Source: Minisyncoccota bacterium
GTDB taxonomy: Bacteria; Patescibacteriota; Minisyncoccia; UBA6257; 2-01-FULL-56-20
DNA: 64,000 bases
Direction of reading: 5' to 3'
Assembly: GCA_022843285.1 (NCBI GenBank)
Contig: JALHNY010000002.1
Coordinates: 21,124 to 85,123 of the forward strand
A program made the translations under genes and the position numbers. Of this stretch, positions 15,234 through 30,804 are shown one piece after another (within the stretch, counting starts at the first letter, position 1; every line of letters starts with the position of its first letter). The notes under the pieces were generated by a model, which searched no databases, was not told the DNA's origin, and saw nothing but the letters and a program-made list of their open reading frames with translations.

Positions 15234-15305
15234 TCCGGCGTAGCTCAATGGTAGAGCGTCTCGCTGTTAACGAGGGGGTTGTAGGTTCGAATCCTACCGC
15301 CGGAG
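15234..15305 (+). tRNA. tRNA-Asn (anticodon GTT)
   Basis: Manual cloverleaf: acceptor tccggcg/cgccgga, D-stem gctc/gagc, anticodon stem tctcg/cgagg with loop ctGTTaa, T-arm gtagg ttcgaat cctac, discriminator G, no encoded CCA. Confidence 0.85.
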
Positions 15306-16901: not shown

Positions 16902-17048
16902 AGGAAAAGCCCGAGAGGGACGGCCTGGTTGACCCGATATATGCAACCACAGGGATTAGCAGATAGCGGCAAACCGCCCCTCTCGGGCTACTATCAACGC
17001 TAATAACTGGAATGGTATTCATAATCGGGTCAACATAGACATTATAAG

Positions 17049-18191
17049 CTATTTGTCGCCTAAAAGCCGCCGCAGGTACGCCCGCACCTCGTCTGGTAGC
17101 TCTACCGTGCCGTCGCTGTTTTGGAAGTCCCGCAGCTCGCGCACGATGTCCACCGCGCGTTCCACGCCCATACTGCCGTACCCATACGCGCCGAAAGTTG
17201 TGCCGATGTTCTCGTGCCCGAGCGTCAAGCTGATAGCCCGCTTTTCCTCCTCGGTGAGGCGCATCTTGCTCATCAAGCTCACCACCAAGTGTCGGTACGA
17301 GTGAGGATGGTAGTACTTCACGCCAGCGTTCACGCACCGCTTCTCAAATATCTTCCGAGCGCTTCCCGTATCGTTCCAAAAGGAACGGCCGATACTGTCC
17401 TTGCTGTACGCCTTCTTCGTGCTGATTTCGCTTGAGGTAGCGGGGAAGATAGGGTCGTCTGGGGCAAATCCCTTGCTCTCCAGGTACTCGTACCACTCCA
17501 GGAAGTAGCGGCTGGGCTCATCCCATCCGATAGGGAAGAACGTCGTGATGATGGTCTTTGAGTTCTTTGTCCGCACGCCATCCGCAGGGTTCTGATGGAT
17601 GCGACGGGTCTCTTTGTCAAAACTCTTCATCTTGAGCGAGATGATGGCGCTGATGCGGCAGCCCGTAATGAGGGCAAAGCTGATGAGCGCCCTGTCGCGC
17701 ATAGCTATCTCGTTCGTGGGTTCAATGCTCCCGATTACTTGTTGCACCTCCTCAAGCGTGGGCATCGCCTTCGTCGTACCCGATAGGACAATCTGCATAT
17801 CCTTCTTGGAGATGCGTAGGAAGTCAGTATCTGCCTTGACCAGCTTCTGGCTATATTCGGGTTGAGAGGCAAGCCACTGGAAGAACTCCTTTACTCGCCG
17901 CAGGTAGTGATACCGAGTGGCGGGCTTCAGCTTCCCGTCGGGTGTCTTTGTCGTTTTCCGAATGAGCCACTCGCAGTACGCGGCTGCTTTGGACTTATTG
18001 AAGGTCGCAAAGTCCTCGCCACCAGAGAAAACCTGCCACTGACCGATGGCGTCGGCATAGTCGTTTACGGAGCTCTCGGAGAAGCCCTTTGCTCCGCGCA
18101 GGTGCTCAAAGAAACCGCGCTTTGCCTGCTCGTTTCGGTATGGGGTTTTGTCTTGTTGGTTGGGAGTGTTCATATTCGTGCAAACCGACAT
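17049..18191 (-). CDS. tyrosine-type site-specific recombinase/integrase
   Basis: 380 aa; N-terminal SAM-like domain; C-terminal catalytic region with ...HPHSYRHLVVSLM... and R..LGH..I..T (R-H-R-Y family pattern). Confidence 0.8.
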   Translation of the reverse strand: MSVCTNMNTPNQQDKTPYRNEQAKRGFFEHLRGAKGFSESSVNDYADAIGQWQVFSGGEDFATFNKSKAAAYCEWLIRKTTKTPDGKLKPATRYHYLRRVKEFFQWLASQPEYSQKLVKADTDFLRISKKDMQIVLSGTTKAMPTLEEVQQVIGSIEPTNEIAMRDRALISFALITGCRISAIISLKMKSFDKETRRIHQNPADGVRTKNSKTIITTFFPIGWDEPSRYFLEWYEYLESKGFAPDDPIFPATSSEISTKKAYSKDSIGRSFWNDTGSARKIFEKRCVNAGVKYYHPHSYRHLVVSLMSKMRLTEEEKRAISLTLGHENIGTTFGAYGYGSMGVERAVDIVRELRDFQNSDGTVELPDEVRAYLRRLLGDK

Positions 18192-18542
18192 TTACATCTG
18201 AAATAACGGTTTCTGATAGTACTTTTGAGAGGGTTTGATTGTCCTGCTCATTTTCACGCTACAGACCGCGCACAGCCCCTTCTCCTTGTCGCCCACGACC
18301 TTCTTTGAGCCGCGCTTTGCTCGCCGCGGGCGCTTACAGCCGAAGCAAAAGAACTCGTTTTGCTTGAGCGGTGCCTTGCGCTTCTCGTCTTTGCTTTTCA
18401 GGAATGCTTGCAGGTCCGAGCCATAAATGAGGTATGGCTTTGAGCAGCCAGCAACGGTCTTGAGGCCGCTCTCCATCCAGCGAGAAACCGTCTTTTCGTT
18501 GACGCCGAGTATGCTCGTCAGCTCTGAAACGGTGTAGCTCAT
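18192..18542 (-). CDS. HTH DNA-binding protein with a C-terminal CxxC...CxxC zinc ribbon
   Basis: Starts MSYTVSELTSILGVNEKTVSRWMESG (HTH), later CFGC...CAVC; the ORF-track N-terminal extension overlaps the upstream small ORF and is rejected. Confidence 0.6.
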   Translation of the reverse strand: MSYTVSELTSILGVNEKTVSRWMESGLKTVAGCSKPYLIYGSDLQAFLKSKDEKRKAPLKQNEFFCFGCKRPRRAKRGSKKVVGDKEKGLCAVCSVKMSRTIKPSQKYYQKPLFQM

Positions 18543-18546
18543 ATTT

Positions 18547-18720
18547 TTATGTATTCCTTGCGGATTGATTTTGCTCATACGCGATGGCACGGCTCACGAT
18601 TTCAAGCAGGCGGCAAAGACGGAGCCCCTTCTCAAGGGCTTCGTCTTTGCTGATGTCTTTCCCAAAGTGCTTTTTGTAAAGCGCTTGGAACTCGGCAATC
18701 TGCTTGTCCGAGAGCCGCAT
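18547..18720 (-). CDS. 57-aa hypothetical protein (MRLSDKQIAEFQALYKKHFGKDISKDEALEKG...)
   Basis: ORF not in the track (<60 aa); its stop TAA lies 4 nt before the ATG of the HTH gene, suggesting an operon. Confidence 0.4.
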   Translation of the reverse strand: MRLSDKQIAEFQALYKKHFGKDISKDEALEKGLRLCRLLEIVSRAIAYEQNQSARNT

Positions 18721-18722
18721 CT

Positions 18723-19076
18723 CTACTCGCTGTAGAGGCGGTTCTTGAGCATCTTGAGCGTGTCAAAGTAGCTGCGTGCTTTGACCTCAAGACGGTCCGA
18801 CCAGTACTCGTCCACGACACCGTCCAGCCCGTCAGTGCGCTCAAAGACGAACTGGACCTTGTGCTTGTCGCTGCGCTTCAGGGAGGCGAGCTTGAAATGG
18901 GCGCAGACCAGCGCCGTTGCCAGCCCCAGGTCGTATGAGTAAAAAAAGTTGACGCTATCCTCAAAGGGGACGAGCTGGTAGCCCTCCTTTGGACGCTTCT
19001 TCGGTTTGTTCTTGTCCATCGTAATCTGTAGTAATGGGTTATTGAGAGCGCTTCGCGCGAAACGAAAAACGCACAC
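18723..19076 (-). CDS. small hypothetical protein (tentatively DUF5659-like; probable internal start MDKNK at 19022)
   Basis: Pattern ...YSYDLGLATALVCAHFKLASL...VQFVFERTDGLD...YWS...LKMLKNRLYSE resembles small proteins common on phage/mobile elements. Confidence 0.45.
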   Translation of the reverse strand: MCVFRFARSALNNPLLQITMDKNKPKKRPKEGYQLVPFEDSVNFFYSYDLGLATALVCAHFKLASLKRSDKHKVQFVFERTDGLDGVVDEYWSDRLEVKARSYFDTLKMLKNRLYSE

Positions 19077-19137
19077 TCATCGTGTGCGCTGGAGACCTCT
19101 ACTTCGGTCTGCTATTTCTCCCTTTTCTCCCGCTTTT

Positions 19138-20055
19138 CTACGGGCTCGGTTCCCTCAACATATAGTGGCCGCTGGTAGGAGTTACGAGTATGTCGTCTAT
19201 GCCCGCATACGCTTTCTTGATGCTGCTTTTCATCTTGTGGCACACCTTCTGTGCCGCGTCAGCAACATCGTGGCCGAGCTTCTTTTTCATATAAGCAGCG
19301 ATGTCCCTATGCGTTGCTTGCTCCTGCCAGTGCTCCCAGAGGTAGCTCAGGAAGTGGTGCTCGGGGCTATTGAGGCCCGCCGTGTAGACGAGAGTGCCGT
19401 CCACAAAGAGCTGCGCCTGCGACGGGTCAAAGCGGACGCGCCGCCCACCCTCCATACGCGCCTTGAACGCCTGCGCATCAAAGAGTGTTTTTGCCCTGGG
19501 CTTTGCCAAGATGTCCGCGAGGGCACACTGGCGCGTGGCGTCCGCTCCAGCGGCAAGCGATACCTCGGCGAGGTTCGTGAGCAATACCCTCGGCTCGTTC
19601 CCCATCGTGGCGAAGCGCAAGGATGCCTCCTGAGCGTCGTGCGTGCGGAGATAAAAGACCTGCGTCGTGGCGGTCTCCGTCGTATAGCTTCCCAGGGCCG
19701 AGAAGGGGTCGCCTGAACGCGCCGTCGCGTCAGCCGCTTGGATGCCTAGCTCCTGGGCAATCAGCTCAGTGAAGGCAGGGTGGTCGTATTCGTATACCGT
19801 TAGCTTCTCGTCCGTGAGGAGCTTCTTCCCGCCACCGTTCTCGCACACATAGGAGAGCACGCCATCGTCGTTCCGTACCTGGCACTCGTGCCCTTCGTTG
19901 CAGAGCCCGCACTCCACGCTCTCCAGATTGGAGACCCGCTTGAGGACTTTCTTGGCAACCAGCGCGGCGAACCCCACCTCGTGCCCCTTCTTATCGGCAA
20001 TGCCGAAAGAGACGCGTGAGGAGCGTGCGGTGATGCGCTCCAGGAACCAGCGCAT
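19138..20055 (-). CDS. hypothetical protein with a Cys cluster (ECGLCNEGHECQV...YVCENGG), island cargo
   Basis: 305 aa, lower-GC codon usage, no recognizable enzymatic motif. Confidence 0.55.
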   Translation of the reverse strand: MRWFLERITARSSRVSFGIADKKGHEVGFAALVAKKVLKRVSNLESVECGLCNEGHECQVRNDDGVLSYVCENGGGKKLLTDEKLTVYEYDHPAFTELIAQELGIQAADATARSGDPFSALGSYTTETATTQVFYLRTHDAQEASLRFATMGNEPRVLLTNLAEVSLAAGADATRQCALADILAKPRAKTLFDAQAFKARMEGGRRVRFDPSQAQLFVDGTLVYTAGLNSPEHHFLSYLWEHWQEQATHRDIAAYMKKKLGHDVADAAQKVCHKMKSSIKKAYAGIDDILVTPTSGHYMLREPSP

Positions 20056-20059
20056 TGGT

Positions 20060-21220
20060 TTATGCGACCGCGATGCCCCAGTCTTTCAACAGCCTACGCA
20101 CCGTATCGTCCTGGGCGCGGTTCTTGAGGTCGCAGTTGTTCGGAGGCGAGATAGTAACCGAGACCTGCTTGCGGCGACCCTTGCCCACCTGGGCGAATAT
20201 GACCGTGATTGTGATGCTCTCCGTCTCCCATCCGTCGTTCCTGTCCAGCCCGAGCTCCTTGAGGATTTCTTGCACGGCATCGGTGCCCGTGTACTGCCCC
20301 TTCCCGCGCACATCAATGAACAGCCTGTGCGGTACGCCCTTGCTCTTGAGGCGGATGGACTTGAGGAAGGAGCGCTCCACGCCATAAGAGCTGTCAGCGA
20401 CGAGCGTGAGCTTTGAGAGGTCGGTCGTGGGCGCGAGCGAATAGCGCGGCTCCTCGGTATTGAGGTCGCTGATGCCGAGGAAGTGCTTGGCAAAGCGCAG
20501 CTGGAGGTCCCTGACTATATCCTTGCCGCCAATGGCACGGACGCCGAGGTGCATTAGCTCGGGCTTATAAATGAAGATGGCGTCAAAGACGGGCTTGCGG
20601 GTGATTTTCTCGTCCAGCTTGCCGTCAACGAAGGCGGTATCGCGCGTCGGCAGGTCCTCCAGGTAAGCGCGAAGGATGATGTTCTCGCCCTCTCGGAAAG
20701 CCTTTATCTTGCACTGCTCGCCCTTGTAAGTGTTCTTATACGCGGCACGCACCTCCGCCTCAAACGCATTTATCTGCGCATCGGTGATTTCGTCCACGGG
20801 CTTCGTGCTCGGGAGCGACACCTCGGTAACAGCGTGGCTCTCTATGTTGGCTCGGCTGTAGTAGGTATCAAACTCGTCTGGATAGTTGATGTAAGCCAGC
20901 AGCGCACGCTCGTCGTTGTTCTGAGCCCGCTTCTCAATGTGCTCGGTGCGATTGATATCAGGGAAGTAGTCGCAGAGCGCCTTGATGTGGTTCTCCGAGG
21001 ACAGGGAGTTGATATAGGCGAACTCCATAAACACGCGGTCGCGTACCTGCTCGTCCTGTTCGTGCATAAAGACCATAAAGCGGTCCGCGCAGTCCTCGCG
21101 GCTCTCATCCTTCGGACCAGACGGGAAAGTAACGCCGTGGCGCTTCTGGAGGTACTCGGCGAGAAGCTCGCAGCTTATGTGCTGCGCGAAATCACGCGGG
21201 TCAGAGTAATGCGATGCCAT
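20060..21220 (-). CDS. hypothetical protein, island cargo (386 aa)
   Basis: Tandem with 19138..20055 (5-nt gap); no recognizable domain by eye. Confidence 0.55.
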   Translation of the reverse strand: MASHYSDPRDFAQHISCELLAEYLQKRHGVTFPSGPKDESREDCADRFMVFMHEQDEQVRDRVFMEFAYINSLSSENHIKALCDYFPDINRTEHIEKRAQNNDERALLAYINYPDEFDTYYSRANIESHAVTEVSLPSTKPVDEITDAQINAFEAEVRAAYKNTYKGEQCKIKAFREGENIILRAYLEDLPTRDTAFVDGKLDEKITRKPVFDAIFIYKPELMHLGVRAIGGKDIVRDLQLRFAKHFLGISDLNTEEPRYSLAPTTDLSKLTLVADSSYGVERSFLKSIRLKSKGVPHRLFIDVRGKGQYTGTDAVQEILKELGLDRNDGWETESITITVIFAQVGKGRRKQVSVTISPPNNCDLKNRAQDDTVRRLLKDWGIAVA

Positions 21221-21300
21221 TGTAATCGTAATGGGGAGGGCCGCTTCATCAGTGCGCGGATTTACCGCGTGAGCCCGATACTGTAAGGTAATGGTACTAA

Positions 21301-21522
21301 ATGGAGCGCACTAAGCAACCAAAGCAGGGGAATGGCAAGCTGCCTGAGCTCCTGACGCTCAAAGAGGCCAGTGAAATCCTCAAAGTCCATCCCAACACGC
21401 TCCGCGCCTGGGATAAGAAGGGCATCCTCGTTGCTATACGGTTTGGAGAGCGGGGCGTTCGCCGTTATCGTAAGGACGACATCCTGAAGCTCATCTCACA
21501 GCCACGCCACTCACCAAAATGA
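21301..21522 (+). CDS. MerR/excisionase-family HTH DNA-binding protein (Xis-like, or the R-M controller)
   Basis: LLTLKEASEILKVHPNTLRAWDKKGILVAIRFGERGVRRYRKDDI = HTH_17-like. Confidence 0.65.
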   Translation: MERTKQPKQGNGKLPELLTLKEASEILKVHPNTLRAWDKKGILVAIRFGERGVRRYRKDDILKLISQPRHSPK

Positions 21523-21577
21523 CCTAATCACACCCAAAAAACATCTGCCTAAACCAGCACGGCACGGCAGAAAATAT

Positions 21578-21624
21578 CCCGACCAAGATAGTACGCTGTC
21601 CATCTATGGGCACTCTTGGTCGGG
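21578..21624. promoter_or_regulatory. 11-bp inverted repeat cccgaccaaga N25 tcttggtcggg (candidate operator) upstream of mod; a third half-site cccgaccaa at 21717-21725 abuts the mod ATG
   Basis: Read directly in the sequence; lies between the HTH gene and mod. Confidence 0.45.
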
Positions 21625-21729
21625 TCGCAGTCCGAAAGGTCTGTGGGCAGTCCGCGAGGATTGTCGCTTCCGCTAGGTGGGCAGCGTTCTATCGTCCAGA
21701 GCGGAGGCACATAAATCCCGACCAAAAAA

Positions 21730-23529
21730 ATGAAAAGGCCTATTACCATTACCCAAGCAAAGGGGCGTCCGCTGCTGCACTGGGCAGGCAAGCGTCCACT
21801 AGAGAGCGTTCAGTTCTATCCCGCGCAAGAGAAGGAGGTTTACGGCGACAAGAGCGCAAGCGAGTTCAATAAGCTGTTCTGGGGCGACAACCTCCAGGTG
21901 CTTTCGCATCTCTTGCAGGAGTACCGCGGCAAGGTGGACCTCATCTACATTGACCCGCCATTTGATAGTGCGGCCGACTATGTGAAAAAGATAAAAGTGC
22001 GTGGGAGCGTGCTAGAGGCTGCGCCCCAGAGCATTCTGGAAGAAAAGCAGTATACGGATATTTGGGAGAGGGATGAGTATTTGCAGTTTTTGTATGAGCG
22101 ACTTTTGTTGATGCGTGAGCTGCTTTCAGATACGGGAAGTATCTATGTTCATATGGATGAAAAGCGCTCCCATTACATCAAGGTCATATTGGATGAAGTG
22201 TTTGGCCCTGAGAACTTCCAGCGCGAGATTGTTTGGGACATCACGGTTCTTTCAGGTTTCAAGACCATCGCCCAAAACTGGATACGCGGCCACGATACGA
22301 TTTTGTATTACACAAAATCACCCAAAAAGACCTTCAATAAGCTCTATCAGTCCCACACCGAAAAGTACCTCTCTATGTTCAATCGGGAAGATGAAAATGG
22401 TGAGAAGTACTTGGTCGCACACGGCAGTAAGCGCTACCTCAAAGACGTTGAAAGTAAGGGCAAGCCATTCGGCGACGTATGGGATGATATTATGTCTTTT
22501 CAACAGCAGCCTACCGCGGCAGAAAATGTCCAATATCCAACTCAGAAACCAGAGACGCTATTGGAGCGCATCATCAGTGCGTCTTCCAATGAAGGCGACC
22601 TGGTGTTGGATTGCTTCGTAGGTTCAGGCACGACCTGTGCTGTGGCCCAGCGACTGGGACGCCGATGGATAGGGTGCGACATCAATATCGGCGCGATACA
22701 GACGAGCACCAAGCGCCTCAACCAAGTTATTTCCCAGCAGCTCAAGGAAAAGCAGAAGGGTAAGGCTGTTCTCGGTTTCAAGGTGCTGAACGTCAATGAA
22801 TACGATGTCTTCAAGAACGAGGTGGAGGCAAAAGAGATAGTGATGGAAATGTACGGCATTGAGCCCCTCAAGCGTTCGTACTTTGACGGCACGCTGGACG
22901 GCGACTTCGTGAAGGTCCTGCCGCTCAACCGCGTGCTTGGCAAGCTGGATATCCGCTCGCTGCTCAAGGGCATCGGCGACGAGATGGACAGCTTTACTAA
23001 GAAGACCACTACTAAGCACGGCGAGCCTGTGTACCGTGAGAGGGTCAATATCGTTTGTTCGGGGCTTGAGCTGGATGCCCAGGACTTCCTGCGTAAGGAG
23101 AACAAGACGGGCGTAGAGGTGAAAATCCTGGACATCCTGAGCGACACCCGTGACCTGGTGTTCAAGCAGCATCCCGAGGCCAAGCTGAAGGTGCAGGTGA
23201 AGGATAAGAAGCTCTCCCTGGATGTGGCAGCGTTCTACTCGCCGCTCTTGATGCGGAAGCTAGAGTTAGAGAACACTAAGCGCCTCAAGAAGGAGGATGA
23301 GGCCAAGGTGTCCGACTTTAGACAAATCGTTGATAGCGTAACCATAGATATTGATTACGACGGCAAGCTGTTCAACGCCGAGGTAATGGACCTTCCCGAG
23401 AAGGGGGATGTCGTGCAGGGCAAGTACGAGTGGCAGTACACCAAGAAAGGTAAGTACACCGTCGCCGTGAAAATCATTGATGTGCTCGGCGAGGAGTACT
23501 TTGAGACCGTTCCCGTAGAGGTGAAATAG
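21730..23529 (+). CDS. mod: Type III restriction-modification methyltransferase Mod (beta-class N6-A/N4-C MTase)
   Basis: Motif IV DPPF (LIYIDPPFDSAADY) precedes motif I (DCFVGSGTTCAVAQRLGRRWIGCDIN), the beta-class order, with a long TRD in between. Confidence 0.8.
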   Translation: MKRPITITQAKGRPLLHWAGKRPLESVQFYPAQEKEVYGDKSASEFNKLFWGDNLQVLSHLLQEYRGKVDLIYIDPPFDSAADYVKKIKVRGSVLEAAPQSILEEKQYTDIWERDEYLQFLYERLLLMRELLSDTGSIYVHMDEKRSHYIKVILDEVFGPENFQREIVWDITVLSGFKTIAQNWIRGHDTILYYTKSPKKTFNKLYQSHTEKYLSMFNREDENGEKYLVAHGSKRYLKDVESKGKPFGDVWDDIMSFQQQPTAAENVQYPTQKPETLLERIISASSNEGDLVLDCFVGSGTTCAVAQRLGRRWIGCDINIGAIQTSTKRLNQVISQQLKEKQKGKAVLGFKVLNVNEYDVFKNEVEAKEIVMEMYGIEPLKRSYFDGTLDGDFVKVLPLNRVLGKLDIRSLLKGIGDEMDSFTKKTTTKHGEPVYRERVNIVCSGLELDAQDFLRKENKTGVEVKILDILSDTRDLVFKQHPEAKLKVQVKDKKLSLDVAAFYSPLLMRKLELENTKRLKKEDEAKVSDFRQIVDSVTIDIDYDGKLFNAEVMDLPEKGDVVQGKYEWQYTKKGKYTVAVKIIDVLGEEYFETVPVEVK

Positions 23530-23534
23530 GGCTG

Positions 23535-23924
23535 ATGAGCGCTATGATTACCCAGGTAATGGCAGTCGCACACGAGGAGCATCTACAGGGCAAGCTGGAG
23601 CTCGCATTGAGCTGCTACAGCGACATCTTTGAGTTGCTCAGCGAGGAGGCGGACAAGCAGGCGAGCGCTGCCGATGGCACGCGCGTGCAGGTAGGGAGCC
23701 TGACAGTCGCTACGACGCTGCTCTCCGAAGCGAAGAAGAAGCAGTACCTGCGGCGCGACAATCTCGCCGCTATCGTGAGCAATAAGATAGGCGTTATCTA
23801 CGCGGAGCTCGGCCAGGAGGAAGACGCGCTGCACTGGCTTCGCCAGGCGATAGAGCTCACGCCCGACGGCGAGGACTATCCCGAGCCGCAGGACAACCTC
23901 AAGCACCTATACCCTGATGGATAG
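23535..23924 (+). CDS. TPR-repeat protein embedded between mod and res
   Basis: 129 aa; TPR-like helices (LELALSCYSDIFELL..., IGVIYAELGQEEDALHWLRQAIELTPD); starts 6 nt after the mod stop and overlaps the res start by 8 nt. Confidence 0.55.
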   Translation: MSAMITQVMAVAHEEHLQGKLELALSCYSDIFELLSEEADKQASAADGTRVQVGSLTVATTLLSEAKKKQYLRRDNLAAIVSNKIGVIYAELGQEEDALHWLRQAIELTPDGEDYPEPQDNLKHLYPDG

Positions 23925-26442
23925 CCTGTTCCTCAAGAAAATCCAGGAGCGCGTCGCGGAATGGCGCGAAGGCGACTATCAGGGTGTCCTGGACGAGACC
24001 CGTACCATTCTCAGGTACATCAAGACGGTGCGCTTCCTTCACGAGCCGCAGGTGGAGGCGCTGGAGACCTACATCTATCTCAAGGAGGTCCTGGGGAACC
24101 GCCCCTCGGCGGAAGTGTTCGGAGCATCCTTCGGGAATGAGCTGGAGTTCCTGCGAGCCCTCGGTATCACGGATGCGCAGGTCGCCGAGCTCGCCTTTGA
24201 CCCCAGGAAGGACGAGAGGATACAGGAGCTGCTCGGCGCTATGTTCGGCAGGTCCGACTACGCGAACCAGGTCTACGCGCTCACTATGGGTTCGGGGAAG
24301 ACCATCCTGATGGCGACGATGATGGTCTATGACTTCGTGCTCGCGTTCCACCATCCTGACGACGAGCGCTTCGCCAAGAACATCCTGGTGTTCGCGCCAG
24401 ACACGACCATCATAGACAGCCTCAAGGAGATAAAGACCTTTGACTACACCAAGGTCCTCCCGAAGGGCTACCGCAATATCCTACTCAACATCAAGTACCA
24501 CTACCTGGAGAGCCCCGAGACGCCTCTTTCCCCGATAGGCAACTTCAACATCATCGTCTCAAACTCGCAGAAGATAATCCTGAAGCGGAGGTCAGCGGAC
24601 CGTCGCAAGTCGCTGTTTGTTGAGCGCGACAAGAGGCAGATGCAGGAGAACAGCCGCCTCCTGGCAATCCGCCAGCTGGAACGGCTCTCCATCTTCGTGG
24701 ACGAGGCGCACCACAGCTACGGCGAGACGATGGACAAGGAGCTCAAGCGGACGCGCGAGACGATTGGCTACTTGCACGGCAACAAGCCGCTCGTCTCGGT
24801 CGTGAACCTCACGGGCACGCCGTATGTGAAGAACAAGATGGTGGCCGATGTCGTCTATCACTTCGGTCTCAAGGCGGGCATAGAGCGCGGCATCCTCAAG
24901 CAGGTCCGCATTCTGGACTACGGCAACGTGAAGTCGGAGCGGTTCGTTGATGAGGTCGTGGAGACCTTCCTGGGCGAGTACGGCGAGCAGCGTCTTGAGG
25001 GCAGGCTTCCCAAAATCGCCTTCTACGCGGCGAGCATCGCCGAGCTGCGGCAGGAACTCAGGCCAAGGATAGAGAAACTCCTCGCGCAGCGCGGCGTGTC
25101 CCTGGACAAGGTGCTGGAGTACCACACCGCGGCGGAAGGCAACAAGGATGAGTTCAAGCGGCTTGATACGGCGGAGAGCAACAAGCAGTTCGTGCTTCTC
25201 GTAGGCAAGGGGACGGAGGGCTGGAACTGCCGCTCGCTGGTGGCGTGCGCACTCTATCGTAAGCCCAAGAGCACCATATTCGTGCTCCAGTCCTCAACGC
25301 GCTGCCTGCGTTCCATCGGCGACAACTCCACCATCGGCCGCATCTTCCTGTCTCGCGAGAACTACCAGGTGCTGGACAAGGAGCTGCGCAGCAACTTCTC
25401 TGTCAGCGCGAGCGAGCTCTCGGCACAGGACCAGCGGACGGTTGACCACGAGCTGAAGGTGGAGAAGCGCAAGACGATTACGGTCAAGAAGGTCCTCAAG
25501 GAGGTGGTCTCCGCGAAATCCGTGGACGCCTCGCGCATCAAGGTGGACTTCAAGCGTTTCAAGCCAGCCGACTACCAGGCCTATGTGAGCGAGGGCGGCA
25601 TCCTGCTCGGCGCGAACAAGCGGGCTGGTTACAAGGAGGCGCGGGCAGTCCGCAAAATCAGCGAGACGGGGGACTTCACCTACTACGAGATTGTGGAGCT
25701 TATCAATCGGCATACGCACCTGCCGTGCTCGGTCGTTGACGACATCCTCTCTGGCAGCGGCAAGACGCAGGAGGCGCTGGTGCGGGATGCCAACAAGACG
25801 CCAGCCCTCGTGCCTTTCCTCATCCAGGAGGTCCTGATGGCTGCCTACCAGTACGAGGAGCGCACCGAGGTGGTGGAGGAGGAGCTTGAGCTGACCAAGC
25901 TGTTCCCGTTCAAGATAAGCGTCCAGAAAGGCAGGAGCGCCCTGGTCGTGTATCGGGAGGAGGGAGAGGAGGACGGGCACACAGGCCGCCTAGGGTTCCA
26001 CATCAATCCTTACAGCTTTGACAGCGGGGACGAAAAGGACCTGTTTCGTTACCTGCGCGACTACCTGGAGAAGGACGAGGGTATCGCGGACATCTACTTC
26101 ACGGGCGGCGCTCCCTACGCAGTCCATAACGACTTCCACTTTGAGTACTGGAGCCCCGAGCTCAGGCGGATGGCACGCTACTTCCCCGACTTCCTCATTG
26201 AAACCACGAAGGGTCGCTACCTGGTCGTGGAGGTGAAGGGGAACGACGAGAAGCTGGATTACGAGGCGAACCAGAAGTCCTATAAGGGCAAGCGAGAGCA
26301 GCTGACCAACGAGGTCTTCGCCAAGGAGGTGGGCTTCACCGAGTTCCAGAAGGTGAACAAAGGGTTTGAGTACCGCATCGTCTTCAACGCGACCGCGAAG
26401 CAAGCCCAGATGCGCCTCCTGGAAGACATCAAGCGCCTATGA
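23917..26442 (+). CDS. res: Type III restriction enzyme Res subunit (SF2 helicase-nuclease)
   Basis: Walker A TMGSGKT, DEAH box FVDEAHH, and a helicase C-terminal region; 841 aa. Confidence 0.8.
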   Translation: MDSLFLKKIQERVAEWREGDYQGVLDETRTILRYIKTVRFLHEPQVEALETYIYLKEVLGNRPSAEVFGASFGNELEFLRALGITDAQVAELAFDPRKDERIQELLGAMFGRSDYANQVYALTMGSGKTILMATMMVYDFVLAFHHPDDERFAKNILVFAPDTTIIDSLKEIKTFDYTKVLPKGYRNILLNIKYHYLESPETPLSPIGNFNIIVSNSQKIILKRRSADRRKSLFVERDKRQMQENSRLLAIRQLERLSIFVDEAHHSYGETMDKELKRTRETIGYLHGNKPLVSVVNLTGTPYVKNKMVADVVYHFGLKAGIERGILKQVRILDYGNVKSERFVDEVVETFLGEYGEQRLEGRLPKIAFYAASIAELRQELRPRIEKLLAQRGVSLDKVLEYHTAAEGNKDEFKRLDTAESNKQFVLLVGKGTEGWNCRSLVACALYRKPKSTIFVLQSSTRCLRSIGDNSTIGRIFLSRENYQVLDKELRSNFSVSASELSAQDQRTVDHELKVEKRKTITVKKVLKEVVSAKSVDASRIKVDFKRFKPADYQAYVSEGGILLGANKRAGYKEARAVRKISETGDFTYYEIVELINRHTHLPCSVVDDILSGSGKTQEALVRDANKTPALVPFLIQEVLMAAYQYEERTEVVEEELELTKLFPFKISVQKGRSALVVYREEGEEDGHTGRLGFHINPYSFDSGDEKDLFRYLRDYLEKDEGIADIYFTGGAPYAVHNDFHFEYWSPELRRMARYFPDFLIETTKGRYLVVEVKGNDEKLDYEANQKSYKGKREQLTNEVFAKEVGFTEFQKVNKGFEYRIVFNATAKQAQMRLLEDIKRL

Positions 26443-26939
26443 AGCTCCTACTGCTCATCATCGTGCTCGCTGGGCTCGCGGCACTTGCCGTATGGAAGAC
26501 GCGCGAGGAGGGCGGCGTTGAAGCAGCGAAGTACCACTACAAGCGGCGGGGTTTCCTGATGTCCCGTGCCGAGCACGAGTGCTACGACGCCTTGCTCGCG
26601 GCCGTCGGCGGCGAGTACCACATCTTCGCCCAGGTGCATCTGCCGAACCTCGTGGACAGCAAGGTAGTGGGGCAGAACTGGCGCGGCGCGTTCAAGCACA
26701 TCAGCCAGAAGTCCGTGGACTTCGTACTCTGCGACAAGGCGTACATCGCGCCGCGGCTCGCCATTGAGCTGGACGACAGGAGCCACGAGCTACCCGAGCG
26801 GCAGATACGCGACGCCGAGGTTGAGCGCATCCTGCGCGAGGCAGGTGTGCCCCTGCTCCGTTTACAGAACCGCGGCAGCTTCAATCCCGTGGAGCTCGCG
26901 CAACAGGTCCGAGAAGCAGTAGCGCCAGGGGTGGGGTGA
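26439..26939 (+). CDS. DUF2726 (NERD/PD-(D/E)xK-like) domain protein coupled to res
   Basis: ATGA overlap with the res stop; N-terminal TM; conserved ...CYDALLAAVGGEYHIFAQV...DFVLCDK...IELDDRSHE pattern. Confidence 0.55.
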   Translation: MKLLLLIIVLAGLAALAVWKTREEGGVEAAKYHYKRRGFLMSRAEHECYDALLAAVGGEYHIFAQVHLPNLVDSKVVGQNWRGAFKHISQKSVDFVLCDKAYIAPRLAIELDDRSHELPERQIRDAEVERILREAGVPLLRLQNRGSFNPVELAQQVREAVAPGVG

Positions 26940-27589
26940 ACATCTACCTGGACATAGACGGCGTGCTCCTCACCAAGAAGGGGGAGCCAGCCGAGGGCGT
27001 AGCGGGCTTCCTGCGTCGCGCCGTGGCCTCCCACGAGGTCTACTGGCTCACGACCCACTGTAAGGGCGATACAGGCCCCGTGGTGGCCCACCTGCGCCAC
27101 AGGCTGCCCCAGGAGGCCGTAGAGCTACTCCAGGGCATCAGGCCGACCACCTGGGGCTTCCTCAAGACGGATGCCCTGGATTTCAGCCAGGACTTCCTTT
27201 GGTTTGACGACTACCTGATGGATGCCGAGAAAGTGGTCCTGGAGCGGCACGGCAGTCTCCAGAAGCTCGTAGGAATGATTTGCCATTCGTATGGCCTCGC
27301 AGAGCCCGCATCGCTCTCAGGGCGCATCCACATTGAGCACGGCCTGGTAATCAGCGCATCGCCCGATGCCGTCTTAGGTCTCTACCGCGATGTCGCGGCC
27401 GACCGAGAGGCCGTTGAGAGCGCCTTCTGCTACTACGCGCTCTTGCTTCTGAAGGAGGGTGAGCGGGGAGGCAACTTCACGATTGAGCGCATCAAGGAGC
27501 TGTTGGAGAGCGACAAGGACCTCGCTGGCTCAAGGGCAGCCGCGCTGCTCAAGTCCTATCTCCTGAGAGCGGACGCTTCCTGGTCCTGA
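26936..27589 (+). CDS. HAD-superfamily-like hydrolase, hypothetical
   Basis: GTGA start/stop overlap with the previous gene; N-terminal HAD motif I-like IYLDIDGVLL. Confidence 0.5.
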   Translation: MNIYLDIDGVLLTKKGEPAEGVAGFLRRAVASHEVYWLTTHCKGDTGPVVAHLRHRLPQEAVELLQGIRPTTWGFLKTDALDFSQDFLWFDDYLMDAEKVVLERHGSLQKLVGMICHSYGLAEPASLSGRIHIEHGLVISASPDAVLGLYRDVAADREAVESAFCYYALLLLKEGERGGNFTIERIKELLESDKDLAGSRAAALLKSYLLRADASWS

Positions 27590-27593
27590 GCGA

Positions 27594-27923
27594 TTAGAAG
27601 CAGAAGGTATCGGTCTCGCTGCACACGCGGTCCACGTTGTCCTCAACATCGTCCATTCTCTCCTGGAGGTCGTAGATTTCGCTCTCCGCCCATCCGCCAT
27701 CTCCGTCATTCACCTTGTCCTCCAGGTCGCTGATGCGCGAACCGTAACTGCTCTGTCCGTAAGAGGAGCTCTCCACATCGTCAATCCTCTCATTGAGGCC
27801 AGCTATCTGCGCCCACTGCCAGAAGAACGCAATCACGAGTATGGCGATGATGATAGAAGCGGCCTTATTGCCTTTCACCCACGCCTTGAGGTCTGCCAGG
27901 CGATTGCCGTGCGGGGTGCTCAT
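27594..27923 (-). CDS. small hypothetical membrane protein with acidic DDVE repeats
   Basis: 109 aa, one TM helix (AASIIIAILVIAFFWQWAQIAGL). Confidence 0.45.
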   Translation of the reverse strand: MSTPHGNRLADLKAWVKGNKAASIIIAILVIAFFWQWAQIAGLNERIDDVESSSYGQSSYGSRISDLEDKVNDGDGGWAESEIYDLQERMDDVEDNVDRVCSETDTFCF

Positions 27924-27933
27924 TGTCTCGCGC

Positions 27934-28179
27934 TCAGGGGTGGAACTTCGGGTTAGGGTTCCTTCCTATCACCTCAAGCGTGTCCTGGTGGAGGATGCGC
28001 CCGCAATCGGCGCAGACATACAGGCCGTCCCAGTCGCTGCCGATTACTGGCTCCATCTCGTTGCCCTCCTTGTCGCAGGGATAGAAGCCGCCTCCAGAGG
28101 GGGTGTTGCCGCAGATGCAAATCCAGGCCTCGTCGTTATCTGGCTCGTGGGTGATACGTTCCTTGGTCGGGGTTTCCAT
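27934..28179 (-). CDS. small zinc-ribbon protein
   Basis: CICGN...CDKEG...CADCGR motifs. Confidence 0.45.
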   Translation of the reverse strand: METPTKERITHEPDNDEAWICICGNTPSGGGFYPCDKEGNEMEPVIGSDWDGLYVCADCGRILHQDTLEVIGRNPNPKFHP

Positions 28180-28232
28180 AATGCTCTAAGCGTACCGCAT
28201 CAGGCTCTAAAACAAAGGGCTTTTCTGCTACA

Positions 28233-28261
28233 TAGACATTTCTCTCCGTATTATGTATAAT
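28233..28261 (+). promoter_or_regulatory. promoter of the DGR target gene (TAGACA-17 nt-TGnTATAAT extended -10)
   Basis: tagaca at 28233-28238; tgtataat at 28254-28261; the aggaga SD precedes ATG 28333. Confidence 0.5.
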
Positions 28262-28332
28262 ATGGATAGTTTCAGGAGGCGCTGCACGGCAGTTGCTCAC
28301 CCGAAATCAAAAGAGAATATAGGAGAAAAGAA

Positions 28333-28926
28333 ATGGGAAAAGTCATTGGTATTGAACAGTCCCACGCACTCTTGGCTATCTTGGCTCAGAACGTGGATTG
28401 GAGCGCGATTGAAGCGCAAACGGCGCAAGCCATCATCCTCGACCCGAAAGGGGCGGGCGCGAACTTCACGAAGTTCATCCAGCAGGGAGCGCGTGTCCTC
28501 AACGGCACGGGCAAGCTGATGGTTGACTACTCAGTGAAACCGTCGCTCATCTCGCTCGCCGTTGAGAGCCACGTTGACCGTTCGGACATCGCAGAGATAG
28601 ACATCAGCAAGCTCACCCGCGTGCAGATGCTCCGCGACGGAGAAAGCAGCATCTCAGGACACGATTACCTGAAACGCCTCAAAGAAAGCGGCGTGCCGAT
28701 GCTTGATGTCCGCGTGATGGAGGAGCTGCTCAAGCCCGAAAACCAGCACCTCATCCCCGAGGACTGGAAGAAAGGTCTGACCTACTTCTTCGGAACGATT
28801 TATCGCGTCTCGGTCGGCTTCCTCTACGCCCCCTACCTCAACTGGCACGTCGGCGAGTGGTTCTGGGACTACTACTGGCTCGGCCTCGACTGGGACGTCG
28901 GCGAGTTCGGTGCGTCCCTCGCGTAA
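28333..28926 (+). CDS. DGR variable (target) protein; the C-terminal VR in a putative C-type-lectin-like fold ends ...EFGASLA
   Basis: The C-terminal 40 codons are near-identical to the downstream TR except at TR adenines; no signal peptide. Confidence 0.85.
   Translation: MGKVIGIEQSHALLAILAQNVDWSAIEAQTAQAIILDPKGAGANFTKFIQQGARVLNGTGKLMVDYSVKPSLISLAVESHVDRSDIAEIDISKLTRVQMLRDGESSISGHDYLKRLKESGVPMLDVRVMEELLKPENQHLIPEDWKKGLTYFFGTIYRVSVGFLYAPYLNWHVGEWFWDYYWLGLDWDVGEFGASLA
28803..28923 (+). repeat. DGR variable region (VR)
   Basis: 121-nt alignment to TR 29264-29384 with 21 mismatches; 20 fall at TR adenines; GC-rich 3' IMH-like end ggtgcgtccctcgcg. Confidence 0.85.
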
Positions 28927-28980
28927 TCCCTCCGACCTCATTTCGCTTAGTAAGTTCGGGACCTTTGTCCCTTTGGATTT

Positions 28981-29020
28981 CACCCCTGTTCGGTTCTACC
29001 GCAGGGGTGATTTATATTTC
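28981..29020 (+). terminator. stem-loop plus T-rich tract downstream of the VR (terminator or DGR-associated hairpin)
   Basis: cacccctg ttcggttctaccg caggggtg followed by atttatattt; a smaller hairpin gggac cttt gtccc lies at 28958-28971. Confidence 0.5.
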
Positions 29021-29263
29021 AGGCCTTGCGTGATACCGTCGGGTCGGACAGTAGGCCCGCGTGCCCGCGGCTACGGTTGCGGACAGCCGAGCTCCGAGAG
29101 CCCTGGAGGTGGAATGTCGCGGGGTACGCCTCGCGCCAGCGCCCTGCCTGGCACTCAAAAAGAAATCTAAATCGGTGCAGGACGCTATGGGATTACTATC
29201 CCGAATACGATGCAGCCCCGAGAGCATTCAAGGGGCGGTGGCACTGGCGGCATCCTGTACAGT

Positions 29264-29384
29264 TCGCAACTCGGACGGCAACCTCTACGCCCCGTACCTC
29301 AACTGGAACGACGGCAAGTGGAACTGGAACTACAACTGGCTCGACAACGACTGGAACGACAACGAGTTCGGTGCGTCCCTCGCA
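29264..29384 (+). repeat. DGR template region (TR), non-coding RNA template
   Basis: Adenine-rich in AAC codons (in-frame reading ...NLYAPYLNWNDGKWNWNYNWLDNDWNDNEFGASLA); the cognate of the VR. Confidence 0.85.
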
Positions 29385-29416
29385 ATCTGGATTTCTCCTC
29401 CCGCCTGGTTCCCCAA

Positions 29417-29716
29417 TCAGGCGGGAGTTTCCTTACGAGCCACGGCCTGGCGGCTCCAGCCGCCGAGCATCCTGCCTATCTCCGCGAGCGGCTCTGACAG
29501 CGCGACATACTTCTTGTTATCCAGCGCCTTCACCTCCCAGATGAGCTGGAGGAAGAACTTGAGGAGGTCCAGCTTGGCGATGGCCCGACCGAGGACCGCC
29601 GCCTTCTGCTCCTTCGGCGCGTAGCTGGCGACGAACACCAGCTCAATCGTGTCGGCGAACACCGCGTCTATCTTCTCGCCCAGGGTGTAGCGAGCGGTCT
29701 TCGGGATGTGGGGCAC
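29417..29716 (-). CDS. avd: Avd-like accessory variability determinant (four-helix-bundle protein family)
   Basis: 99 aa, helical; C-terminal ...YVALSEPLAEIGRMLGGW resembles the conserved ...IGKMLxGW end of four-helix-bundle/Avd proteins; lies between TR and RT on the opposite strand. Confidence 0.5.
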   Translation of the reverse strand: MPHIPKTARYTLGEKIDAVFADTIELVFVASYAPKEQKAAVLGRAIAKLDLLKFFLQLIWEVKALDNKKYVALSEPLAEIGRMLGGWSRQAVARKETPA

Positions 29717-29775
29717 GAACTCGTGCCACTGCTTGTAAGCCGATACCAGGTGCTGGATTATCGGGATATTACTGC

Positions 29776-29786
29776 GGGGGGGGGGG
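29776..29786. repeat. G11 homopolymeric tract in the avd-RT divergent intergenic region
   Basis: gcGGGGGGGGGGGcg at 29776-29786. Confidence 0.9.
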
Positions 29787-29805
29787 CGTTCTAAGAACAG
29801 TCATT

Positions 29806-30804
29806 ATGAGAAGTCAGTTACCCATTACCTACGACGACATCACGAGCGCAGAGAACCTCTTGAGCGCGTGGGGCGAGTTCGTGCGTGGGAAGCGGGCTAA
29901 GAAGGATGTACAGGATTTTTCGTTCCGCCTGATGGACAACATAATGCAACTAAGGAGCGAACTCGTCAATATGCAGTACGAGCACGGCCCCTACGAGGCG
30001 TTCAACATATCCGACCCCAAGCCGCGGAGCATCCATAAGGCCTCCGTGCGCGACAGGCTGCTGCACCACGCCATCTACCGCCAGCTCTATCCCTTCTTTG
30101 ACCGCACCTTCATCGCCCAGTCCTACTCGTGCCGCAACGAGAAAGGGGCGCACAAGGCGATGGACACCTTCCGCTCTTACGCCTACGACGTGAGCCACAA
30201 CCACACGCGGACCTGCTGGGTGCTCAAGTGCGACATCCGCAAGTTCTTCGCCAGCGTGGACCAGGCCGTTCTCCTTGAGGTGCTGCGAGCCTACATCCCT
30301 GACCCCAAAATCCTCTGGCTCCTGGAGCGCGTCGTAGGGAGCTTCAACTCAGGCAGGGAAGGCAGGGGACTGCCGCTTGGCAACCTCACCTCGCAGCTCC
30401 TGGTGAACATCTATATGAACGAGTTTGACCAGTTCGCCAAGCACGGCCTCAAGGCGCGTCGCTATCTGCGCTATGCGGACGACTTCACCTTCCTCTCGGA
30501 CGACAGGCAGGAGCTCGTGGACCTGATACCGCGCATCAGCGAGTTTCTAAGGGAACGGCTCAAGCTGGAGCTGCATCCCGACAAGCTGTTTATCAAGACC
30601 TTCGCCTCGGGCGTGGACTTCCTTGGCTGGGTGCATTTCCCCGACCACCGCGTGCTGCGGACCGTTACCAAGCGGCGAGCGCTCAAGGGCTTCAAGAGCA
30701 AGCCGACCCCAGGGACACGCGCCTCCTACCTCGGCCTCCTGACGCACGGCAACGCCCACAAGCTCTCGCGGACACTGACACCTGCGCCTACTCCAGAGCA
30801 GTGA
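29806..30804 (+). CDS. DGR reverse transcriptase
   Basis: RT motifs: GLPLGNLTSQLLVNIYMNEFD (LGxxxSQ typical of DGR RTs), YADD box RYADDFTFL; 332 aa. Confidence 0.9.
   Translation: MRSQLPITYDDITSAENLLSAWGEFVRGKRAKKDVQDFSFRLMDNIMQLRSELVNMQYEHGPYEAFNISDPKPRSIHKASVRDRLLHHAIYRQLYPFFDRTFIAQSYSCRNEKGAHKAMDTFRSYAYDVSHNHTRTCWVLKCDIRKFFASVDQAVLLEVLRAYIPDPKILWLLERVVGSFNSGREGRGLPLGNLTSQLLVNIYMNEFDQFAKHGLKARRYLRYADDFTFLSDDRQELVDLIPRISEFLRERLKLELHPDKLFIKTFASGVDFLGWVHFPDHRVLRTVTKRRALKGFKSKPTPGTRASYLGLLTHGNAHKLSRTLTPAPTPEQ

Follow-up and report, generated by a model that had tools for sequence, protein, structure and literature searches.

Type III restriction-modification (R-M) systems, of which EcoP15I and EcoP1I (Mod2Res) stand closest to the locus considered here, are encoded by a mod gene followed by a res gene; their cleavage depends on ATP and on a pair of unmethylated sites in inverse orientation, and methylation by them is hemimethylation, confined to one strand. 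R-M systems are often under the control of small helix-turn-helix (HTH) proteins, and Type I R-M loci are known to harbour embedded unrelated genes, such as prrC in EcoprrI and the 'rlo' open reading frames (ORFs) in Campylobacter hsd loci. For Type III systems, Mod/Res pairs with an added Cas4-like nuclease and UvrD–Cas4 neighbourhoods have been described, and solo Cas4-like genes are common in Candidate Phyla Radiation (CPR) bacteria (Hudaiberdiev et al. 2017, PMC5704561). We analysed a mod–res locus in a stretch of 64,000 nt from a Minisyncoccota bacterium (contig JALHNY010000002.1, positions 21,124 to 85,123 of the forward strand), hereafter called the window, for which the original prediction had proposed a Type III operon augmented by three translationally coupled genes. 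Our analysis indicates that the locus is probably a Type III-like HTH–(LOOT leader)–mod–res module on an integrase-bearing element, with the HTH protein and the LOOT RNA acting in control and the extra genes being variable cargo rather than subunits. The system is ordinary, with variable cargo and an interesting leader. Its newer points are that the mod|res junction serves repeatedly as a cargo slot and that the LOOT leader carries a copy of one of its stem arms at the mod start codon.

The mod–res core

The mod gene (21730-23529, + strand) encodes a beta-class N6A/N4C DNA methyltransferase of 599 aa, which matched Pfam N6_N4_Mtase at 1.3e-51, PADLOC MTase_III at 1.3e-69 and the Mod subunit of EcoP15I at 1.2e-19. 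Its DPPF sequence at aa ~75 (motif IV) precedes FVGSGT at aa ~297 (motif I, FxGxG). Between relatives, the region of aa ~86-365 was 10-60% identical and the ends were 80-100% identical. Conserved ends around a replaced centre are the pattern of a swappable recognition domain, and this variable centre is the presumed target recognition domain. The comparison with locus L072 (related loci are designated here by L numbers), the Res of which is 99% identical, gave 15-63% identity for the centre of Mod (about 21985-22824) and 90-96% for its ends; this apparent exchange of the central region between relatives indicates a specificity-domain swap.

The res gene (23917-26442, + strand) encodes a superfamily 2 (SF2) DEAH helicase followed by a C-terminal PD-(D/E)xK nuclease motif. 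The protein matched Pfam ResIII at 1.9e-7 over aa 118-302 and gave weak matches to DUF1064 and TnsA-N over aa 696-800. GSGKT (aa 125-129), DEAH (aa 262-265), TGTP and PDF...EVK (aa 757-774) were invariant in an alignment of 10 homologs. The architecture is that of Type III Res subunits, in which an SF2 DEAH helicase-like ATPase at the N-terminus is combined with a PD-(D/E)xK nuclease at the C-terminus, and the predicted mod–res system of Type III architecture is supported by the family scores of Mod and by these motifs of Res. Membership of Res in the curated Type III Res families was not found by sequence: the match to PADLOC REase_III (5e-4) covered 55 residues only, the score against NCBIfam BPTD_3080 was 90 bits for a cut-off of 800, and no PDB chain was matched at E<=0.01, profile search included. 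We call the system Type III-like because Res is this far from the curated models and from solved structures.

Over 3,600 matches to the Res family were obtained, mostly from Patescibacteria/CPR. Our Res-side survey covered 59 species-representative loci plus others, and the junction counts were made over 56 loci. The mod gene was directly upstream of res, adjacent or overlapping, in 40 of these 56, and an ORF was inserted between the two in 12; the mod and res genes of the window are parted, without gaps, by the 390-bp TPR-like gene. The ratio of nonsynonymous to synonymous substitution rates (dN/dS) among three close relatives was 0.03-0.04 for res, mod and the T5orf172 gene described below, with 0.03 for res itself. 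These results indicate that the core is, as far as can be judged from homology, HTH–(LOOT leader)–mod–res, a Type III-like R-M module of a large family typical of CPR/Patescibacteria. By analogy with known Type III systems, Mod would recognise an asymmetric site via its variable central domain and methylate adenine, and Res would join Mod, use its DEAH helicase-like ATPase to communicate along DNA and cut unmodified DNA with its C-terminal PD-ExK nuclease.

Res homologs of 32% identity, found on proteobacterial and Enterococcus plasmids, carry the Prokaryotic Genome Annotation Pipeline (PGAP) label 'TnsA endonuclease N-terminal domain protein'. On Nitrosomonas eutropha plasmid p2 (L158), the only plasmid context inspected, the Res homolog follows a methyltransferase gene and a large helicase gene, and this arrangement may be the UvrD-type helicase/Type III neighbourhood (PMC5704561).

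Genes between and behind mod and res

All six predicted ORFs are present in the claimed order on the + strand. In addition to mod and res, they comprise the HTH ORF (21301-21522), a TPR-like gene (23535-23924, 129 aa), a DUF2726 gene (26439-26939, 166 aa) and a last ORF of 217 aa (26936-27589) that had been called HAD-like. The junctions were as predicted for the TPR/res overlap of 8 nt, the ATGA overlap of res and DUF2726 and the GTGA overlap of DUF2726 and the 217-aa ORF; the gap between the mod stop codon and the TPR ATG, predicted as 6 nt, is 5 nt when read from the sequence. Gene callers place the TPR start at 23544 (126 aa), and the distance to mod may then be 14 nt. No terminator-like site was found at any junction of the six-gene block, and promoter-like sites within it were at the level of chance (4 found and 2.8 expected), which supports the view that the six genes are a single compact block on one strand, devoid of detectable internal signals. 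The tight spacing is real. It is not distinctive, as the leftward genes of the same element are also 2-18 nt apart and the genes found between mod and res in other loci are each 0-8 nt from their neighbours. Since this holds for every such insertion, tight spacing is a property of the position and not functional evidence. The extra genes are probably co-transcribed and co-translated simply through their position inside the operon.

Close relatives showed how these genes come and go. Positions 15293-28806 of the window are 100% identical to a public contig (L005), a 101-kb NCBI contig encodes identical proteins, and identical contigs are present in sequencing runs SRR28154521-30. Locus L001, with a Res 95% identical and flanks ~88-92% identical to those of the window, has mod and res only 2 nt apart and lacks both the TPR gene and a 1.8-kb block (26441-28219) that contains the DUF2726 gene, the 217-aa ORF and two small ORFs on the - strand (27594-28179; 109 aa with a transmembrane-like segment, and 81 aa, Cys-rich). 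The target gene of a diversity-generating retroelement (DGR) lies 28 nt after res in L001, and the same gene lies 1.9 kb downstream in the window. Loci L011 and L072 (~96% nucleotide identity) have the order mod–T5orf172–TPR–res–DUF2726–130 aa–176 aa. The window differs from them by an indel of ~605 bp, which ends at the borders of the T5orf172 ORF, and by a 276-bp deletion between two AGCTCGTG repeats (8-bp microhomology). The five-gene order of the window is confined to one lineage. Because they are present or absent between near-identical relatives, the three extras look like passengers, and the notion of a fixed augmented module was not supported, given the single lineage and the lack of all three in L001. 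The dN/dS values among the three close relatives were 0.09-0.16 for DUF2726, 0.13-0.26 for the HAD part of the last ORF and 0.22-0.25 for the TPR gene, which indicates that all are real genes, with the extras under weaker constraint. For annotation, a gene does not belong to a defence system merely by being tightly coupled within a compact CPR operon; whether near-identical relatives have or lack it tests membership better.

In a separate observation, the comparison of L001 with window positions 18220-21916 revealed a loss of 3.7 kb in L001, which comprises the leftward operon, the HTH gene, the LOOT element and the first 68 codons of mod. Its res is still intact (dN/dS 0.07), and the R-M system of L001 may be decaying.

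The TPR-like protein contains one motif (aa 83-111), which scored 28.5 bits for a Pfam cut-off of 27.8; TPR proteins have tandem 34-residue helix-turn-helix repeats, usually three or more. Its model is all-helical with a predicted local distance difference test score (pLDDT) of 78, and a fold search of the model against the PDB gave nothing with E below 0.3, the top matches being TPR proteins. The word-indexed search returned only 2 near-identical proteins. The exhaustive HMMER search added full-length homologs of ~125 aa with 37-40% identity, one with a lipoprotein-like signal, and we rejected the idea that the gene is an orphan on this ground. Mod and res were absent from the four contigs of one of these homologs, each of which is just 2-2.8 kb long. 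The TPR gene stands between mod and res in this lineage only.

Other loci carry other genes at the same place, including T5orf172 (L002, L011/L072 and L014), Bro-N (L037, L039 and L040), an AIG2/GGACT-like gene (L024), a 148-aa gene with no family name (L035) and an EVE-like gene of 388 aa (L064-L066, a subfamily of 42% identity). The mod|res junction is a recurrent insertion slot. The slot in the clade of the window holds T5orf172, a GIY-YIG-like gene of homing-endonuclease type, plus the TPR-like gene in the window lineage. Among L011, L002 and L014, T5orf172 is as conserved as Res (78-85% and 73-75%, respectively), and for this reason its absence from the window is most simply a loss; we infer that the gene was probably lost here rather than inserted in the sister lineages. 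T5orf172 was also considered as the boundary of mod allele exchange and rejected, as the divergence of Mod is central and its last ~230 aa are 80-96% identical. The borders of the mod|res cassettes share a similar short sequence, AAATAG-(GG)CT-ATGGA (window 23527-23546; L011 8250-8262 and 8860-8875; L002 3845-3855 and 4465-4475), which could drive insertion and loss by recombination.

In regards to the genes behind res, the DUF2726 protein matched Pfam PF10881 at 4.2e-28 (98 bits for a cut-off of 24.7). DUF2726 has been placed in the PD-(D/E)xK superfamily as a Vsr/DUF559-like family (PMC3424549), and fusions of DUF2726 to defence domains occur elsewhere (PMC3710099). The 166-aa protein would accordingly have a PD-(D/E)xK/Vsr-like nuclease fold, and all DUF2726 copies share an N-terminal hydrophobic anchor. 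The gene lies directly after res in the window lineage, L018 and L026, and one gene further on in L025. It also comes after res in four metagenome contigs (L083, L086, L127 and L129), and its overlap with res is often 4 nt. We also surveyed the association from the DUF2726 side with the 80 closest metagenomic relatives (55-75% identical), ~43 of which have enough upstream DNA. This Res was upstream in 3 of the ~43 (L086, L127 and L129), plus L083 with a partial Res of 46% identity, so that ~93% of the relatives with sufficient upstream sequence lie elsewhere; counted from either side, DUF2726 follows res in about 7–10% of loci. The other neighbours of DUF2726 were integrases, SNase, AbiEii-like ATPases, PDDEXK_1, GmrSD and recombinases, and the setting of this gene is a mobile or defence island that is not specific to Type III systems. 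The position after res is occupied by a PDDEXK_1/Cas4-like gene in L002 and L016 (overlapping the end of res), a NucS/DUF5655-like gene in L038 and a Cas4-RNaseH gene in L050. The remaining loci have serine recombinases, a peptidase, a kinase-like ATPase, genes without an assigned family, or nothing. The position collects stand-alone nucleases, with DUF2726 as the one present here, and DUF2726 is the only one of the extras that recurs with res, a link that is possibly functional.

The 217-aa ORF has no Pfam match. By comparison with L011 and L072, the 276-bp deletion has created an in-frame fusion of codons 1-111 from the 130-aa gene with the last ~106 codons from the 176-aa gene, with the junction at ~27261-27270, and the N-terminal part retains all four HAD motifs. 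This part has homologs of ~130 aa (1,907 matches). Among 43 family members, D6, T39, K77 and D91-D92 of the HAD motifs are invariant; some members have Asn in place of the second Asp of motif I. AlphaFold modelled the HAD-fold protein with a pLDDT of 94.9, and its top Foldseek matches are all HAD phosphatases (SCP1, Lem4 and TIM50) with a probability of 0.99, E values of only ~1e-2 and TM-scores of 0.56-0.60. The N-terminal half combines the predicted HAD fold with motifs I-IV. The HAD fold claimed for the last ORF holds for this half; the claim of a single HAD-like gene does not, as the ORF is a deletion fusion of a minimal HAD phosphatase-like gene with the gene that followed it. Members of the HAD-fold family were found beside a recombinase and a Type II R-M system, after FtsK beside a Type ISP enzyme, and with resolvase/Fic genes; one copy lies 1 kb after res in L023. 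The co-occurrence of the accessory genes with Type III systems in other genomes, on which the original prediction had been made to depend, was observed for DUF2726, and the TPR and HAD families were found elsewhere.

Several observations weigh against our reading of the locus as a Type III-like module with passenger cargo. Res matches the curated Type III models only weakly and has no PDB sequence match, and the Type III mechanism proposed for it is extrapolated from its architecture. Purifying selection on all extras (dN/dS 0.09-0.26) implies expressed and useful genes rather than junk, and the conservation of T5orf172, equal to that of Res across the clade, makes it a long-term resident rather than a transient invader. 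Nuclease genes follow res by a 4-nt overlap in several divergent lineages, namely DUF2726 (with Res identity down to 46%, L083), the PDDEXK_1/Cas4-like genes of L002/L016, the NucS-like gene of L038 and the Cas4-RNaseH gene of L050. Such recurrent nucleases behind res hint at a functional affinity, and Type III loci with an extra Cas4-like nuclease are on record (PMC5704561). The five genes could form a true augmented system, in which the TPR-like protein would bridge or sense between Mod and Res, the part of second effector nuclease would fall to DUF2726, and the processing of DNA ends or nucleotides to the HAD-like protein. The selection on the three extras, the nucleases behind res in other lineages and the Cas4-like precedent (PMC5704561) speak for this arrangement, as do the overlapping start and stop codons without internal signals. 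We consider it improbable, given that the five-gene order occurs in a single lineage, that the closest outgroup has an intact res and none of the three extras, that the HAD-like ORF is here a deletion chimera, that TPR and HAD homologs lie mostly elsewhere, and that tight spacing is general in the element and in all slot insertions.

Two narrower explanations concern single genes. DUF2726 alone might have a functional tie to Res, serving as a facultative accessory nuclease that would, for instance, degrade DNA after Res cleavage, with the TPR and HAD-like genes as passengers. Its place directly behind res in the window lineage, L018, L026, L083, L086, L127 and L129 (with one gene between in L025), the frequent 4-nt overlap, a Res divergence spanning 46-100% identity, and a restriction-endonuclease fold with defence-domain fusions elsewhere (PMC3710099) agree with this view. 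It seems a doubtful possibility to us in that ~93% of the closest relatives with enough upstream sequence are away from this Res, Res has its own nuclease motif, the hydrophobic anchor in all copies is unusual for a partner of a DNA-tracking enzyme, and the nearest Res relatives (L001, L002, L013 and L014) lack DUF2726. The other explanation is selfish homing, by which T5orf172 would have invaded the mod|res junction as a free-standing homing endonuclease and the TPR gene would have travelled along or been trapped. T5orf172 genes are documented as homing-endonuclease-type genes located between essential genes (PMC10448857), their presence and absence here fall exactly at ORF borders, the cassette is flanked by the similar AAATAG-CT-ATGGA junctions, and Bro-N, a related class of mobile-DNA protein, occupies the same slot in other lineages. 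Against these points, the divergence of T5orf172 tracks that of Res, as in vertical inheritance; the exchanged part of mod is its central domain and not the T5orf172 boundary; and the window lacks T5orf172, the nuclease activity of which is putative. We regard homing as unlikely. The reading of the extras as variable cargo leaves this very large CPR Type III-like family with two recurrent cargo positions, mod|res and after res, which provide a handle for finding new defence or anti-defence genes.

The mod leader and the HTH gene

The 207-nt spacer between the HTH gene and mod matched the RNA family LOOT (Rfam RF03000), reportedly described by Weinberg et al. in 2017, with 63.3 bits for a gathering score of 46.4 (E 1.9e-11, model positions 1-121). 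The LOOT core (21546-21667, + strand) comprises the helices P1, P1a, P2, P3 and P4 with GNRA loops. Stem P2 (21578-21624, + strand) is formed by the 5' arm CCCGACCAAGA (21578-21588) and the 3' arm TCTTGGTCGGG (21614-21624). The 3' extension of the leader (21668-21729, + strand) contains a pseudoknot strand as well as hairpin P5. The 5' arm of P2 also stands there as a third copy, CCCGACCAAAA (21717-21727), which ends 2 nt before the mod ATG. The P2 loop strand 21593-21601 pairs with 21678-21686 to give a pseudoknot, and RNAalifold on full leaders likewise placed the P2 loop in a long-range helix with a strand 3' of P4. Our model R1, derived from 11 leaders, scored the window leader at 90.5 bits. 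Covariation analysis gave 96% of cells paired and compensatory changes at 18 of 21 pairs, a level that 0 of 500 shuffles reached, with the alignment fitted to the model.

A scan with R1 detected LOOT in 26 of 160 loci, and 13 independent lineages had the element directly upstream of mod. Each of these 13 mod-linked leaders carries the P2 5' arm again as an 11-nt copy, the end of which is 0-3 nt before the mod ATG. This third copy covaries with both P2 arms in 13 of 13, over at least 8 different arm sequences. The minimum-free-energy fold of the window leader is the P1-P5 form, in which the third copy and the ATG are unpaired (z = -4.3). The three-way covariation suggests an RNA switch: the P2 3' arm would have two alternative partners, the P2 5' arm, a pairing in which the start site stays open, and the third copy, and we infer that the latter pairing would occlude the start. 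The LOOT leader would in this way gate mod translation.

On these grounds we propose tentatively, and somewhat short of an even chance, that LOOT is a cis-acting conformational switch or co-transcriptional timer of the R-M operon, the leader fold deciding the translation of Mod and, via coupling, of Res and the passengers, and that in parallel the mod|res junction is a dedicated slot for mobile or defence cargo. If true, this would be the first proposed function for LOOT and a means by which CPR bacteria control the establishment of R-M systems through RNA. It has long been asked how R-M systems enter a new host without killing it; for Type III-like systems, an RNA switch before mod would answer this in a new way, and the orphan Rfam RNA would gain a concrete, testable role as a mod leader. 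No text on the gene context of LOOT was found in the searchable literature, which does not cover the supplement of the discovery paper.

LOOT was also observed upstream of genes other than R-M genes (L003 11431-11552, L022, L120, L155, L148, L079, L080, L139 and L153/L154). These genes are mostly ORFs with N-terminal membrane or signal-like segments, and in L153/L154 the element lies ~240 nt upstream of a 130-aa HAD-fold gene. These copies lack the P2-arm copy at the start codon. In the window, the LOOT arm core CCCGACCAA has a fourth exact copy (28163-28171, - strand), which is distant from the leader and just upstream of the DGR promoter region; the arm-core pattern occurs 4 times in 64 kb, for 0.5 expected. 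The T5orf172 clade has a different conserved leader of ~270 nt before mod (L002 1760-2045; L014 ~3380-3580) with GAAA loops and covarying stems (GTATACCCACCA/TGGTGGGTATAC against ACATCCACGT/ACGTGGATGT). No Rfam family reached its gathering score with this leader, which may be an undescribed RNA.

The HTH ORF encodes a MerR/HTH_17 (excisionase-like) DNA-binding protein of 73 aa (7e-11), and a homolog lies just upstream of mod in about 25 of the 56 loci, so that the suggested partnership of the upstream HTH gene with the operon stands. A motif of the form GTAATnGTAAT accompanies it. One copy, GTAATCGTAAT (21222-21232, + strand), abuts the start of the divergent 386-aa gene, where the - strand reads ATTACGATTAC-A-ATG, and is a candidate operator. 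A second copy, GTAATGGTA (21288-21296, + strand), lies 4 nt before the HTH start in a conserved -10-like stretch (CTGTAAGrTAATGGTAyyAAATG), and an inverted copy, ATTACCATTAC (21742-21752, + strand), lies inside mod codons 5-8. GTAATSGTA occurs 3 times in 64 kb (0.1 expected), in each case within 21222-21752. The motif is at the same place in most related loci, and loci with a short spacer have the inverted copy just before the mod ATG. Its reading frame changes from locus to locus, and the motif is therefore a nucleic-acid element. The motif is a candidate site for the HTH protein and a better operator candidate than the palindrome; the MerR-type HTH protein would bind these sites at two start codons, that of mod and that of the divergent 386-aa gene. 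An invertible promoter was considered, since GTAATnGTAAT / ATTACnATTAC inverted repeats flank the HTH gene, and found no support, the HTH gene being co-oriented with mod in all ~25 loci. A PADLOC match of the HTH protein to mad1 of the MADS system (4e-9) stood alone, with no further MADS gene matched, and we took it for generic HTH similarity.

The palindromic operator-like repeats noted upstream of mod exist (21578-21588 / 21614-21624). They are the two arms of LOOT stem P2 and no obvious operator, and the suggested C-protein-like control did not hold up, the HTH protein being of the MerR/excisionase type rather than Xre and the palindrome being RNA structure. The three 11-nt arm copies could still be read as DNA operators for the HTH protein, with transcriptional control of the C-protein kind in place of an RNA switch. 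The HTH gene adjoins the repeats, small HTH regulators are common in R-M systems, and the layout of 2+1 sites would fit. The arms are, however, part of a structured RNA of a curated family that has GNRA hairpins and a pseudoknot with covariation, and their sequences differ completely between loci with 52-79% identical HTH proteins, which is expected of base pairing and not of a conserved DNA-binding specificity. LOOT also occurs without an HTH gene and before unrelated genes, and many loci have an HTH gene and no LOOT. We judge the operator explanation of the arms highly improbable and retain the RNA switch as the proposal for the leader.

Mobile-element context and comparison with known systems

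The leftward operon (18192-21220, - strand) contains the 386-aa, 305-aa, DUF5659, 57-aa and HTH_17-like genes and is conserved. Homologs of DUF5659 and the 57-aa gene lie beside mod-res in about 30 of the 56 loci, and those of the 386-aa and 305-aa genes in about 11. A tRNA-Asn gene (15234-15306, + strand) overlaps the end of a serine recombinase gene (15294-16946, - strand), which is followed by a tyrosine integrase gene (17049-18191, - strand). Since the leftward genes accompany mod-res and the tRNA-Asn and recombinase genes adjoin them, the R-M module is part of a conserved mobile element. This element is probably integrative; no second attachment (att) copy of the tRNA-Asn 3' end was found in the window at up to 3 mismatches.

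The DGR lies directly downstream (28333-30804). It consists of the target gene (28333-28926) with a variable repeat (~28803-28922), a template repeat (~29263-29383), bAvd (29417-29716, - strand) and a reverse transcriptase gene (29806-30804), and a strong promoter-like site precedes it at 28233-28261.

The locus resembles the Type III systems EcoP15I and EcoP1I in its order of mod and then res, in a beta-class adenine methyltransferase Mod with conserved ends and a swappable centre, and in a Res whose N-terminal domain is DEAH helicase-like and whose C-terminal domain is a PD-(D/E)xK nuclease. It differs in that its Res is very distant from the curated Res models, in that mod is preceded by a MerR-type HTH gene and, for a quarter of the loci, by a LOOT RNA, and in that about 21% of the loci have inserted genes between mod and res. 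The Type III loci with Cas4-like nucleases (PMC5704561) likewise have an extra PD-(D/E)xK nuclease gene beside mod-res, and the Cas4-like gene of L002 and L016 overlaps the end of res; the nuclease of the window, in contrast, is a small DUF2726 (Vsr/DUF559-like) protein with an N-terminal anchor and no helicase fusion.

Type I loci with prrC or rlo genes are similar in that unrelated genes, often of defence or mobile character, are co-transcribed between subunit genes with strain-variable content. The present system is Type III-like, and its slot holds T5orf172, Bro-N, AIG2-like, EVE-like and TPR-like genes, for which we know of no functional coupling like that of PrrC and EcoprrI. As in the C-protein R-M systems C.PvuII and C.AhdI, a small HTH gene lies directly upstream on the same strand, with repeated motifs at promoter or start regions. 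The HTH protein of the window belongs to the MerR/HTH_17/excisionase family, whereas theirs are Xre proteins that bind a palindromic C-box upstream of their own gene, and its motif GTAATnGTAAT stands at the start codons of two divergent operons in a system of Type III rather than Type II. Finally, the window element matches the full 121-position model of LOOT (RF03000) above the gathering score with the same helices. The Rfam entry lists a small RNA gene with no function assigned to it, whereas the element is here the 5' leader of mod, and its 3' extension (pseudoknot strand and P5) and the P2-arm copy at the start codon lie outside the Rfam model.

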